The notes beneath the pieces were generated by a model. The model did no database searches and was not told the origin of the DNA. It was given only the letters and a program-made list of their open reading frames with translations. Source: an uncultured Clostridia bacterium (GTDB taxonomy: Bacteria; Bacillota; Clostridia; Christensenellales; CAG-314). Taken from it: a stretch of 64,000 nt of DNA. Position numbers and translations under genes: made by a program. This document shows positions 15,725 to 33,800 of this stretch, piece after piece; within the stretch, counting starts at the first letter, position 1; every line of letters begins with the position of its first letter. The stretch lies in NCBI GenBank assembly GCA_947623225.1, contig CANQGO010000003.1, positions 15,349-79,348 on the forward strand, written 5' to 3'.

Positions 15725-15979
15725 TCAAGTAAGCAACAAATATACTATCACCGCAGCGAGGCTGAATGCGACAAGGATTATCAGCAATATGGGACCATAC
15801 ACCTGAAACGCTGCCGCTATCATCGCCCGACGTTCTTTTCTTGAGACTTTGACTGCATTTTTGCGTTGGCGATCGCGCTCTTCGAGTTCCTCAGGCGTCT
15901 TGCCTTCCAACCCTGCCATAGAGTAGATCGTCCTGCCGTCATCCTCTTTATAGACGACTTTCGGTTTATTCTTTTTCAT
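15725..15979 (-). CDS. Small tail-anchored membrane protein (84 aa), unknown function
   Basis: The N-terminal half is charged (KEDDGRTIYSMAGLEGKTPEELEERDRQRKNAVKVSRKERR). It is followed by one C-terminal TM helix (MIAAAFQVYGPILLIILVAFSLAAVIVYLLL). Its start overlaps the oppF 3' end by 14 nt. Confidence 0.6.
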   Translation of the reverse strand: MKKNKPKVVYKEDDGRTIYSMAGLEGKTPEELEERDRQRKNAVKVSRKERRAMIAAAFQVYGPILLIILVAFSLAAVIVYLLLT

Positions 15980-17198
15980 CCGACTCAGTCACATCCTCTT
16001 GCAGATCGAACAGGTGACACGCCACAAAATGTCCGGGCGATATCTCTCGCATCTGCGGTGCCGTCTCTTCGCAGCAAGCCATACAGTGTTTGCAACGAGT
16101 ATGGAATTTACAGCCTTGAGGCGGGTTGGCAGGAGAAGGAAGTTCCCCTTCCAACTCTTCAGGTTTTGCTTTTCTGTGCGGATTGGGCACCGGCACGGCA
16201 CTGAACAACGCCTGCGTGTACGGATGGCTTGCATTTGTGCATATATCGGCAGTACTGCCCTTTTCCACTATATCACCCAAGTACATGACTGCGATAGTAT
16301 CGCTGATATACTTGACGACGGATAGGTCGTGCGAAATAAACATATAAGATATGCCCATCTCACGCTGCAATTTTTTCAACAGGTTGATGACCTGTGCCTG
16401 AATGGAAACGTCCAATGCAGATACCGGCTCGTCGCAAATTACCAGATTGGGCTTGACAGCCAACGCGCGCGCTATACAGATACGCTGACGCTGACCGCCG
16501 CTGAACTCGTGCGGATATCTGTCGTAATAGTGAGGTTGCAGACCGCAGCGACGCATGACTTCCAATACGTAATCATGCACTTCGCTCTTTGGCACTATAT
16601 GATGCACCTTGACCGCCTCGCCTATAATAGAACCTACCGTCATACGCGGCGGCAGTGAGGAATACGGATCCTGAAATACCAACTGCAACTGAGTACGCAA
16701 AGGCCGAAGTTGTTTGCGAGTGAGTTTCGCAAGCTCATACTGCTTTCCCTCGGTATCGGTATAGATAGCGGAGCCTTCGGTTATGTCATACAGTCGCAAT
16801 ATCGTTCTGCCGAGTGTAGTCTTGCCGCAACCGGACTCGCCGACGATACCAATGGTTTTGCCGCGTTCCAATTCGAAACTCACTCCGTCTACGGCGCGAA
16901 GAAATCCTTGAGGTTTGCCAAAGAAACTCTTGCCTACGGGGAACCACTGTTTCAGATCGGTGACCTTGAGTATCAGATCGCTGCCGCTTTCCGTTGCGGT
17001 ATCAGTAGCGACTGTCGTCTCGGGTTGAGCCGGCTGCTCGGCGGGAAAAGCAGGAATAGGTTGCTGTGTTTTTTCGGAATGGCGAACGTAACGGACAACA
17101 AGGCAAATGCAAGCGCATATTTGTCCTGCGACGATTACGCCCAAAACACATCCTATCGCTATTGCCGCTGCCTGTGACAGTAAAAGTAGACCTATCAT
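15966..17198 (-). CDS. oppF: Opp/Dpp-type ABC transporter ATP-binding protein (OppF-like) with an N-terminal membrane anchor
   Basis: The track ORF starts at TTG 17231. I prefer ATG 17198 (GGAGGA 7 nt upstream). The NBD motifs are GESGCGKTTLGR, FSGGQRQRICIARAL and ICDEPVSALD, with a Cys-rich C-terminal oligopeptide-type extension. NBD homology starts only at about residue 75. Before it come MIGLLLLSQAAAIAIGCVLGVIVAGQICACICLVV and a Pro/Gln/Thr-rich linker. Confidence 0.88.
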   Translation of the reverse strand: MIGLLLLSQAAAIAIGCVLGVIVAGQICACICLVVRYVRHSEKTQQPIPAFPAEQPAQPETTVATDTATESGSDLILKVTDLKQWFPVGKSFFGKPQGFLRAVDGVSFELERGKTIGIVGESGCGKTTLGRTILRLYDITEGSAIYTDTEGKQYELAKLTRKQLRPLRTQLQLVFQDPYSSLPPRMTVGSIIGEAVKVHHIVPKSEVHDYVLEVMRRCGLQPHYYDRYPHEFSGGQRQRICIARALAVKPNLVICDEPVSALDVSIQAQVINLLKKLQREMGISYMFISHDLSVVKYISDTIAVMYLGDIVEKGSTADICTNASHPYTQALFSAVPVPNPHRKAKPEELEGELPSPANPPQGCKFHTRCKHCMACCEETAPQMREISPGHFVACHLFDLQEDVTESDEKE

Positions 17199-17258
17199 TT
17201 GTTGTCCTCCGTAAACGCTTGCCCTGCACAATGAAATAAAATCATAATATGGGTTTGC

Positions 17259-18578
17259 CTATTTTTTGTATTTGTGACAGAATACGCTGTGCGTAGCTGT
17301 GACCTTGATCTCCTCGGGATACGTACCTTCGCAACAAGCGCATCTTTCTCCGCAACGGTCTTTGAAAAGACACTCGTCGGGAATATTGATGGGATTGGGC
17401 ACTACGCCCGGTATGCTGTACAGATCTGCATCCACTCCTGTATCGAATGTGGGCTTTGCCTTCTGTATACCCTTGGTGTAGGGATGGAGCGGATTGTCGA
17501 ATATCTCATATACCGTTCCTTTTTCCACTATCTTGCCTGCATACATGACCACTACATAGTCACATGTTTCCGCTACCACGCCCAAGTCGTGCGTGATGAG
17601 CACTACGGATGCATGACATTGCTGCTGTACTTCCTTGATAAGGTGAAGGATCTGACTTTGAATAGTCACGTCCAGTGCAGTGGTAGGCTCGTCGGCAATG
17701 ATGAGTTTGGGATTACCTACAAGCGCGATGGCTATCATGACGCGCTGACGCATACCGCCGGACAATTGATGCGGATAGTAGTTGACTATAGTCTCCGGCA
17801 TGGGGATACCCACGCGCGACAGCATCTCTATCGCCCTTTCGTGCGCTTCCTTCTTGGTGGCAAGCGGATTGATGAGATGCACTACCTCTTCTATCTGATA
17901 GCCCACGGTGAATACTGGATTCAGACTGGTCATAGGTTCCTGGAATATCATGGATATATCCTTGCCGCGTATACGGTACATATCCTCCGTAGGCATCTTG
18001 GCTATATCGTATGTGACTTCCTTCATCTCGTACAGAGGTATACCGTCTTCAGCGCGTGCCTGCACCGGGACGCGAACGATATTGCCGTTTTTGTCCTTGA
18101 CGGGGTTGCCCTTCTTGTCCAACTTATCGGCATATACCACGTTCCCCTCTTCGTCGGTGACATATATGGGTATTCTTTTGCCCTTATCGTCCAGCACGAA
18201 GTCGCGCGTGGCAAAGCGGATCTCGCCGTTGGTCACTTGTCCCTGCGGCGCCTGTACGAGTTGCATGATGGACAGACTCGTCACGCTCTTGCCGCAACCG
18301 GACTCGCCGACCAGACCCACGATGGAGTCTTTCGGCACGGAGAATGTGATACCGTTGACCGCCTTGGACACACCGCTGTCGGTATAGAAGTATGTGTGGA
18401 GGTTTTCCACTTCGAGGATATTGTTCTCATCCTGCAACTGCGTGGTGAAATACTCCGGCGTGACCTTTTTACGCTTGGCTTTTTCATACTTCTTCATCTC
18501 TGCAAGATTGCTGCGCAATATCGTGCGGCTTTCTTTCAGACTCAAAATATTGGGATTTTTTTCTCTTTTTGTTTTCAC
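17259..18578 (-). CDS. oppD: Opp/Dpp-type ABC transporter ATP-binding protein (OppD-like) with an internal insertion
   Basis: 439 aa. Contains Walker A GESGCGKSV, the LSGGMRQRVMIAIAL signature, Walker B IADEPTTALD and a Cys-rich C-terminus. It has a GTG start, a basic ~50-aa N-terminal extension and a ~60-aa insert between GEIRF and RGKDISMIFQEP. Confidence 0.88.
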   Translation of the reverse strand: MKTKREKNPNILSLKESRTILRSNLAEMKKYEKAKRKKVTPEYFTTQLQDENNILEVENLHTYFYTDSGVSKAVNGITFSVPKDSIVGLVGESGCGKSVTSLSIMQLVQAPQGQVTNGEIRFATRDFVLDDKGKRIPIYVTDEEGNVVYADKLDKKGNPVKDKNGNIVRVPVQARAEDGIPLYEMKEVTYDIAKMPTEDMYRIRGKDISMIFQEPMTSLNPVFTVGYQIEEVVHLINPLATKKEAHERAIEMLSRVGIPMPETIVNYYPHQLSGGMRQRVMIAIALVGNPKLIIADEPTTALDVTIQSQILHLIKEVQQQCHASVVLITHDLGVVAETCDYVVVMYAGKIVEKGTVYEIFDNPLHPYTKGIQKAKPTFDTGVDADLYSIPGVVPNPINIPDECLFKDRCGERCACCEGTYPEEIKVTATHSVFCHKYKK

Positions 18579-18651
18579 TGTATTACCTTTTGTTCAGATG
18601 CACAGTTGCGCTTATGCGCACATGTGCAACAGCAAATATGTTTTTTCGTTA

Positions 18652-33708: not shown

Positions 33709-33719
33709 CGCTAACCTCC

Positions 33720-33760
33720 CTGTGGCAATCAATGTTATCCCAAAATATATATTGCCACAG
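33720..33760 (-). promoter_or_regulatory. 5'-UTR stem-loop immediately upstream of the subtilase SD
   Basis: The mRNA reads CUGUGGCAAU, a 21-nt loop, then AUUGCCACAG: a perfect 10-bp stem. The 3' arm runs directly into GGGAGG(N6)AUG. The hairpin fills most of the ~58-nt leader predicted from the promoter at 33773-33800. Confidence 0.55.
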
Positions 33761-33772
33761 TATAGTATTTTA

Positions 33773-33800
33773 ATTATACCACCCTCGCCCTGTTTGTCAA
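33773..33800 (-). promoter_or_regulatory. Sigma-A promoter (extended -10) for the subtilase/Opp operon
   Basis: Minus strand reads TTGACA (33800-33795), 16 nt ending TGG, TATAAT (33778-33773). Confidence 0.6.

Follow-up and report, generated by a model that had tools for sequence, protein, structure and literature searches.

The stretch of DNA considered here, 64,000 nt of contig CANQGO010000003.1 (the window, in whose coordinates all positions are given), carries on its minus strand a tightly packed cluster of nine genes that places a giant cell-envelope subtilase beside a complete oligopeptide (Opp)-type ATP-binding cassette (ABC) importer. The cluster is probably a self-contained, co-inherited module for the acquisition of extracellular protein, made up of a surface subtilase and the Opp importer. 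A preliminary description of this DNA had pictured a dedicated machine that captures, cleaves and imports, and as a hypothesis that picture is supported by two results, namely the linkage of protease and importer in 68 of 71 informative loci and the ranking of peptide binders as the best matches of the importer's solute-binding protein (SBP). The system is a variant of the known pairing of a cell-envelope proteinase with Opp, and what is new about it is its genetic architecture, its mode of anchoring and its accessory subunits.

Linkage of protease and importer

When one genome per GTDB species was scanned, at least 589 stretches matched the SBP, a count in which one gene may figure twice. The best 80 of these stretches, in which the SBP is 40-71% identical to that of the window, were taken as loci, of which 71 are non-redundant and have enough flank to be informative, and the linkage was mapped by tblastn of the window proteins against all loci. 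In 68 of the 71, the transporter cassette has a giant S8 protease next to it on the same strand, and the block formed by a B-repeat lipoprotein, the SBP, OppBCDF and a small tail-anchored protein is intact wherever the contig allows. Two gene orders occur: the protease is upstream of the block, as in the window, in 23 loci and directly downstream of the small protein in the other 45. The spacing is close in both, with a median gap of 17 nt between the stop of the small protein and the start of the protease in the downstream order, and with no more than about 30 nt from the protease stop to the B-repeat gene in the majority of upstream-order loci; in the remaining upstream-order loci the distance is about 600 nt and a gene of the type encoding the window's 186-aa lipoprotein lies between. 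Six homologue look-ups, at 71-55% identity, returned the same cluster each time, the flanking genes differed among the loci inspected, and the SBP and the protease catalytic region rise and fall together in their identity to the window (r = 0.95 over 68 loci).

The linkage of an S8 protease with a family-5 SBP, to which attention had been drawn in the window, is thus found in its relatives in two gene orders and with differing flanks. Chance synteny is ruled out by these last two features. Since the protease switches from one end of the block to the other yet stays in the cluster, the comparison provides strong evidence that protease and importer are functionally coupled.

The giant envelope subtilase

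The protease gene (25825-33708, minus strand) encodes 2627 aa. The predicted product begins with a signal peptide bearing a lipobox (LPAC) and continues with an S8 domain (residues 204-689) into which a PA domain is inserted, an fn3_5 domain (740-858), Ig-like modules near 1265-1409, an LRR_5 array from about 1510 to 2250 and a C-terminal transmembrane (TM) helix at 2604-2622. Pfam recognises Peptidase_S8, the inserted PA domain (E 2.7e-14), then fn3_5 (E 2.6e-14), Big_2 or Big-like modules and LRR_5 in eight stretches. The domain content given in the preliminary description therefore holds for Peptidase_S8, PA, Big_2 and LRR_5, but its Inhibitor_I9 propeptide is found only as a sub-threshold match at residues 81-171 (17.0 bits against a cut-off of 21.2). 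Relaxing the Pfam threshold to E values of up to 1 for the propeptide region, the 186-aa protein and the insertions in OppB and the SBP returned nothing beyond this sub-threshold I9, and some homologues of the protease bear a precomputed PF05922 match.

The solved structures closest to residues ~200-895 are the C5a peptidase ScpA, SpyCEP and CspA, with E values of 1e-65 to 1e-59. D213 (in AILDTG), H292 (HGTHVAG), N404 and S629 (GTSMASP) align to ScpA and make up a triad in subtilisin order together with the oxyanion Asn, and the Asp, His, Asn and Ser are invariant in all 68 of the aligned cassette proteases. Given this invariance and the alignment to ScpA, SpyCEP and CspA, the enzyme is predicted to be catalytically competent. 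The triad and oxyanion Asn, with the PA insert and fn3_5, are those of a cell-envelope proteinase of the lactocepin/C5a peptidase type (MEROPS S8A); in place of the sortase signal of such enzymes there is a TM helix. An LPXTG-like motif was found nowhere in the window protease and in none of 23 complete homologues, every one of which has a C-terminal TM segment. The nearest NCBIfam subfamily, the SGO_0316/0317 LPXTG serine peptidases, is matched with 255 bits against a cut-off of 1400, and the protease is not a member of it.

Searches with the protease head also found relatives that stand alone. Lactocepin-like enzymes of Lachnospiraceae, 37-39% identical, occur without Opp nearby, and a further locus (L089, 10001-14436) holds a 1294-aa paralogue of the head (57% identity) that has neither the LRR tail nor an Opp system nearby. 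As the stand-alone S8 relatives without the LRR tail have no adjacent Opp, the linkage, so far as these loci go, is specific to the giant TM-anchored LRR subfamily and not a property of envelope subtilases in general. The cluster would thereby define a new and large subfamily of TM-anchored envelope subtilases, which might act on dietary protein, mucus or immunoglobulins and could affect the interaction of host and microbe.

The importer and its binding protein

Five genes, all on the minus strand, encode the importer: those for the family-5 SBP, a lipoprotein (21540-24071; 843 aa), the OppB-type permease (19787-21478; 563 aa), the OppC-type permease (18652-19773; 373 aa), the OppD-type ATPase (17259-18578; 439 aa from a GTG start) and the OppF-type ATPase (15966-17198; 410 aa). 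The start of oppF was placed at the ATG at 17198, which lies behind GGAGG and with which the relatives agree, although the longest open reading frame (ORF) opens at a TTG at 17231. Pfam assigns SBP_bac_5 to the first, BPD_transp_1 to both permeases, with BPD_transp_1_N and OppC_N, and ABC_tran plus oligo_HPY to both ATPases. The structural features that mark an Opp/Dpp peptide ABC importer of the PepT family, which are a cluster C SBP, two permeases and two oligo_HPY ATPases, are all present, and the best curated matches in NCBIfam are to the Opp4A/B/C oligopeptide systems and to DppD/F-OppD/F ATPases.

The SBP matches SBP_bac_5 with an E value of 8e-29, has the lipobox LAAC and is some 300 residues longer than AppA or OppA, part of the surplus being a helical insertion of ~190 aa at residues ~165-355. 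It has more than 3000 homologues; among the 120 listed, lengths range from 832 to 923 aa and all the named ones come from uncultured Bacillota. When its AlphaFold2 (AF2) model, with a predicted local distance difference test score (pLDDT) of 86, was compared with solved structures by Foldseek, the top match was Bacillus subtilis AppA with a bound nonapeptide (1xoc; E 1e-22, TM-score 0.77 on the target), and the TM-scores for lactococcal OppA (3drf and 3rya) were 0.73-0.75. The model superposes on AppA, OppA and NikA. An oligopeptide binder heads each of three comparisons, these being Opp4A in NCBIfam, OppA in the PDB by sequence and AppA/OppA by fold, and no oligosaccharide binder is among the best matches. 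The family-5 SBP was presented at the outset as part of a peptide-type importer, and it remains so placed, with NikA, NikZ and CntA near by fold; peptide specificity is likely, to judge from the sequence and the model.

Several of the subunits are enlarged. Hydropathy and sequence indicate that TM1 and TM2 of OppB are separated by some 300 aa of extracytoplasmic insertion; across the loci, the distance from the SBP stop to the OppC start points to an OppB of ~300-586 aa. OppD is extended at its N-terminus, carries inserted sequence between Walker A and the Q-loop and is Cys-rich at its C-terminus, and it matches the mycoplasma OppD model of NCBIfam as two stretches flanking an insertion. OppF has an N-terminal TM helix (17085-17198, minus strand) that is limited to the window's clade and recurs in L002, L010 and L021; a membrane-anchored ATPase is unusual in an ABC importer. 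The C-termini of both OppD (17259-17385) and OppF (15966-16060), again on the minus strand, are rich in Cys (e.g. CLFKDRCGERCACCEG...FCH), and presumably resemble the Fe-S-binding tails of some Opp/Dpp ATPases.

Accessory proteins

The protease gene is followed by one for a 186-aa lipoprotein (25265-25825, minus strand), the ATG of which overlaps the protease TGA by 1 nt. The protein has the lipobox LCAGC and no match to a Pfam or NCBIfam family, and tblastn of the loci confines it to the window's closest clade. At L089, the stand-alone paralogue of the protease head is followed, with overlapping stop, by a gene for a 183-aa lipoprotein that is collinear with the 186-aa protein and weakly similar to it (27% identity over the full length, E 0.005). 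Because a similar lipoprotein lies behind a stand-alone protease, the 186-aa protein is probably a protease-associated partner.

The second lipoprotein (24099-25235, minus strand; 378 aa) matches Flg_new and consists of two InlB-type B-repeat (beta-grasp) domains and a small beta-rich C-terminal domain; the AF2 model has a pLDDT of 91, and Foldseek returned B-repeat matches only. Wherever a locus extends far enough its gene lies directly upstream of the SBP gene, and on the strength of this invariable position the protein is assigned to the transporter side of the system. A role as a maturase of the PrtM kind was considered for it and rejected, as Foldseek shows no enzymatic or chaperone fold. 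The cluster has no peptidyl-prolyl isomerase maturase of the PrtM/PrsA type, a rotamase domain being found in neither lipoprotein by Pfam and NCBIfam nor by Foldseek of the 378-aa model.

The last gene of the cluster (15725-15979, minus strand), whose start overlaps oppF by 14 nt, encodes an 84-aa tail-anchored protein with the motif DDGxTxYSM ... RKERRAxIxAAF followed by a TM helix, and has no family match in Pfam or NCBIfam. A protein of this type comes after oppF in 72 loci. In two loci, L085 and L088, the ORFs after oppD (681 and 696 aa) encode OppF fused in frame to such a protein, which is attached to the OppF C-terminus through a long acidic linker of low complexity. By the logic of the Rosetta stone, fusion in two genomes suggests that the 84-aa protein works with OppF, and it is probably a membrane tether or partner of that subunit. 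Only 68 cluster representatives, all of 61-140 aa, were found among 1.8 billion proteins, a census by which the family is judged to be small and dedicated.

Organisation and expression of the cluster

The nine co-oriented ORFs fill the minus strand from 33708 to 15725, and the gaps at the eight junctions are, in gene order, -1, 29, 27, 61, 13, 73, 60 and -14 nt. The range of -14 to 73 nt given in the preliminary description is correct at every junction; its total of ten genes is not, as its own list has nine and no gap exceeds 73 nt and could hold another. The promoter that it placed at 33773-33800 (minus strand) is a sigma-70-type sequence, TTGACA-16-TGnTATAAT, that matches the consensus at 12 of 12 positions and has the TG of an extended -10 element. 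Fewer than 0.01 such perfect matches are estimated to arise by chance in 20 kb on both strands, and the promoter is conserved base for base, in the same position, in four relatives (L002, L010, L011 and L021). It sits just 3' of a terminator with a 9-bp G+C-rich stem (33998-33976) at the end of the preceding gene, which encodes a 1998-aa protein. At the other end of the cluster, the strong terminator reported at 15692-15722 (minus strand) is an intrinsic-terminator-like hairpin with an A-tract, stem and U-tract and a folding energy of -14.9 kcal/mol; the hairpin and its U tract are thus upheld, but the G+C core is only 5 bp and the site is absent from the list produced by a consensus scan. It is followed by the promoter of the next operon (15637-15610), which is again a 12/12 match with an extended -10.

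A few nt past the predicted transcription start begins a leader hairpin (33720-33760, minus strand) with a 10-bp stem, CTGTGGCAAT/ATTGCCACAG, that abuts the Shine-Dalgarno sequence GGGAGG. Across five sequences, those of the window and the four relatives, 92% of the cells pair in this stem and there are compensatory changes at three pairs. The hairpin may be a 5' stabiliser of the 18-kb transcript or a modulator of translation. A search of the whole window against Rfam at gathering thresholds revealed no known riboswitch, T-box or leader. The region was also considered as a recent horizontal island and rejected as such, for its G+C content (0.49-0.52) equals that of the flanks and there is no integrase among the neighbouring genes scanned.

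Taken together, the promoter, the terminator, the junctions of -14 to 73 nt and the retention of promoter and leader in relatives indicate that the cluster is very probably co-transcribed from one promoter to one terminator. It may be asked whether there is more than one transcription unit, for example with the protease expressed alone and the transporter block from an internal promoter, in which case the 'hard-wiring' of the two would be positional only. A promoter of its own must drive the transporter block in the commoner gene order, where that block, headed by the B-repeat lipoprotein, precedes the protease. Within the window's cluster there are several weak promoter-like sites (9/12), and there are hairpins behind the SBP gene, where the gap folds at about -11 kcal/mol, and behind oppC, at about -18 kcal/mol, which may modulate transcript levels or mRNA stability. 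Such an arrangement is nevertheless unlikely. The 9/12 sites number 21 against 24.1 expected in shuffled sequence, so that there is no enrichment; neither hairpin has a U tract, as had been stated for the interior of the cluster from the start, and the consensus scan found no terminator-like site on the minus strand between cluster genes. The protease stop overlaps the next start, the 29-nt gap before the gene for the 378-aa lipoprotein contains no promoter, and in the other gene order the protease starts immediately behind the small protein, at the median distance of 17 nt given above.

Function of the system and alternative explanations

The following mechanism is proposed. The protease would be held on the cell by its C-terminal TM helix, with the stalk of Fn3, Ig-like and LRR_5 modules keeping the catalytic head away from the membrane, whilst the N-terminal lipid anchor, which lies ahead of the likely propeptide, would be lost once the propeptide is removed. 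The head would cut external proteins into oligopeptides, which the family-5 SBP would capture and hand to OppBCDF for import. The B-repeat lipoprotein would assist on the transporter side, the 84-aa protein would tether OppF at the membrane and the 186-aa lipoprotein would accompany the protease. A peptide substrate, a nutritional role and a physical complex are what we infer from the composition and conservation of the cluster.

A number of observations weigh against the reading of the cluster as a module for protein acquisition. Three loci (L016, L028 and L083) have the full transporter block and no S8 protease within 10 kb, and near their cassettes the slot is occupied by giant Flg_new, LRR_5 or Big_3 surface proteins without a recognisable protease domain. 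No substitute protease was found there, Pfam and PDB searches of the neighbouring giants returning Flg_new, LRR_5 and Big_3 repeats; the same giants have long N-terminal regions that match nothing in Pfam or the PDB. No component of the cluster reaches an NCBIfam equivalog cut-off, the scores being 108 of 650 bits for Opp4A, 250 of 450 for Opp4B and 310 of 350 for Opp4C, with other models lower, and OppF attaining 398 bits in a DppF-type subfamily model with a cut-off of 408. Binders of nickel, opines and EDTA (NikA, NikZ, CntA and EppA) score nearly as well against the SBP model as the peptide binders do. Finally, the closest solved relatives of the protease, ScpA and SpyCEP, are enzymes of immune evasion and not of nutrition.

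The last of these points bears on an explanation in which the protease is mainly an adhesin-protease for host interaction or immune evasion, directed at a specific host target in the way that ScpA acts on C5a or SpyCEP on chemokines, and the importer merely salvages the products or is co-located for the sake of regulation. The long BspA-type LRR_5 array and the Ig-like modules would suit such an enzyme, all the carriers are metagenome-assembled genomes (MAGs) from animal guts, and other giant LRR_5/Flg_new surface proteins occur nearby. However, LRR_5 and Flg_new are generic modules of surface proteins in these genomes, and the tight linkage to a complete importer, kept in two orders, in 68 genomes and in many hosts, argues that uptake of the products has been selected. 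The explanation is therefore given a small share of the probability, although it and a nutritional role are not mutually exclusive.

Less probable still is the explanation that the importer carries something other than the products of the protease, such as a nickel or cobalt chelate, an opine or a cell-wall peptide, and that the protease is only a conserved neighbour. The Foldseek E values of NikA, NikZ, CntA and EppA lie near those of the peptide binders, the permeases also match the nickel-type Opp1/Opp2 and NikB/C models, and no solved protein is more than a distant relative of the SBP. Yet it is an oligopeptide binder that tops each of the three independent comparisons, neither the window nor the six homologue gene tables show a metal-dependent enzyme or regulator linked to the cluster, and a protease neighbourhood that survives a change of gene order is hard to explain without a shared flow of substrate. 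A peptide-signalling circuit, in which the protease would mature a secreted pro-peptide and Opp re-import the signal for RRNPP-type quorum sensing, would draw on established roles of Bacillota Opp systems in importing signalling peptides and of extracellular proteases in maturing them, but it is very improbable, as neither the window nor the inspected relatives have a small precursor gene, an RRNPP protein or another regulator in or next to the cluster, and a multi-domain envelope protease of 2,600 residues is out of proportion to the task.

The module for protein acquisition can be taken one step further, to a physically assembled 'protein utilisation machine' from which uncultured gut Bacillota with reduced genomes, of lineages labelled Christensenellales-type, RF39, Acholeplasmatales and the like, would draw most of their amino acids and in which a surface complex channels the products directly into the importer. 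The complex would consist of the protease on its membrane tether, the B-repeat lipoprotein, the oversized SBP and the large ectodomain of OppB, and the 84-aa protein and the clade-specific TM helix of OppF would lock the ATPase to it. This extension is possible but rather doubtful; if true, the machine would be a Gram-positive, protein-directed counterpart of the polysaccharide utilisation locus. To our knowledge, a B-repeat lipoprotein, a mini-protein tethering OppF and large insertions in the SBP and OppB are not features of characterised Opp systems. The cassette offers a testable hypothesis for how its uncultured carriers acquire amino acids, together with a hint for their cultivation, which is that intact proteins or long peptides be included in the medium.

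Carrier lineages

The 80 best loci all come from gut MAGs, of human, rodent, rabbit, ruminant and poultry origin, and their carriers are almost entirely uncultured. The MAGs are labelled Clostridia, Christensenellaceae, Oscillospiraceae, Bacilli, Mollicutes, Acholeplasmatales, Anaeroplasma, Erysipelotrichaceae and Coprobacillus; NCBI labels of MAGs are unreliable, and a few of the loci are labelled Bacteroides, Treponema or Acidiphilium. Two loci labelled Bacilli or Anaeroplasmataceae (L019 and L020) have the gene order of the window and an SBP 51-52% identical to that of the window, above the 43-47% of many Clostridia-labelled MAGs (L023-L088). The pattern hints either that the cassette has passed from one class to another or that the labels are unreliable.

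Gut lineages of the RF39 and Christensenellales type have been described as genome-reduced and auxotrophic (PMC13155120), and such lineages as reliant on the uptake of oligopeptides (PMC7301438). If the labels of the carrier MAGs are equated with these lineages, the distribution of the cassette would fit a nutritional role. No S8-Opp co-operon or 'protein utilisation locus' in these lineages was found in the full-text literature searched, which does not in itself prove novelty.

Neighbouring genes

Directly upstream of the cluster, the 1998-aa surface protein (34013-40009, minus strand), with Flg_new at its N-terminus and LRR_5 repeats, is encoded by a gene with its own terminator. A similar neighbour is present at L001, and at other loci giant Flg_new, LRR_5 or Big_3 proteins lie beside the cassette. 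Further upstream, a gene for a 977-aa LRR_5/Flg_new protein (48152-51085, minus strand) lies between rpoC (51294-55049) and rpsG-fusA (46635-47180 and 44519-46612), which is normally a conserved neighbourhood of core genes. The rpoB ORF (55064-59656, minus strand) opens at a TTG and spans 1530 aa, a considerable length for a beta subunit in bacteria, and upstream of it is an ORF of 1368 aa without a Pfam match (59855-63961, minus strand). Downstream of the cluster, behind the promoter at 15637-15610, is a block for pectin and uronate catabolism (1789-15637) that includes GH4, Mem_trans, SDR, a KDPG aldolase, a PfkB kinase, KduI, a MalK-type ATPase, an enzyme of the mannitol-dehydrogenase type, altronate dehydratase, UxaC and a pectinesterase.

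Comparison with known systems

Polysaccharide utilisation loci follow the same principle, in that one locus encodes a depolymerase acting outside the cell, a binding protein at its surface and a dedicated importer, and serve here as an analogy only; the window's system would act on protein, in a Gram-positive or wall-less envelope, through an ABC importer instead of SusC/D and without a linked regulator. The Opp system of Mycoplasma, as represented in the minimal cell (MMSYN1_0165-0168), is likewise an importer of the Opp type whose permeases and ATPases are enlarged, and MAGs labelled Mollicutes, Acholeplasmatales and Anaeroplasma are among the carriers of the cassette, but the window's components score far below the equivalog cut-offs. 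We know of no protease linked to the Opp system of the minimal cell. The SBP finds its best fold matches in B. subtilis AppA and Lactococcus lactis OppA, with which its sequence identity is only 12-13%, and differs from both in the ~300 extra residues that include the helical insertion.

ScpA, SpyCEP and CspA share with the window protease the S8 domain, the PA insert, the Fn3 arrangement and the aligned catalytic motifs. They are LPXTG-anchored virulence enzymes of ~1,100-1,650 residues with narrow host substrates and no co-encoded transporter, whereas the window protease has 2,627 residues, an LRR_5 stalk and a TM anchor.

The closest functional parallel is the PrtP and Opp system of lactic acid bacteria, in which a surface-anchored S8 enzyme with a PA insert and Fn-type domains is combined with uptake by a family-5 SBP and OppBCDF. 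PrtP is anchored through LPXTG and the window protease by a C-terminal TM helix; lactic acid bacteria have the maturase PrtM, and the window cluster is without a protein of the PrtM/PrsA type. The cluster has in addition the B-repeat lipoprotein and the tail-anchored protein associated with OppF, a BspA-type LRR_5 array in the protease stalk and an enlarged SBP and importer subunits. In L. lactis SK11, prtP/prtM and oppABCDF2 are carried on different plasmids (PMC2827410), in agreement with the statement in the preliminary description that proteinase and Opp occupy separate loci in lactic acid bacteria. The same two functions that are encoded apart in those organisms are brought together in the window in one tightly packed unit, and this union has been kept in two gene orders.

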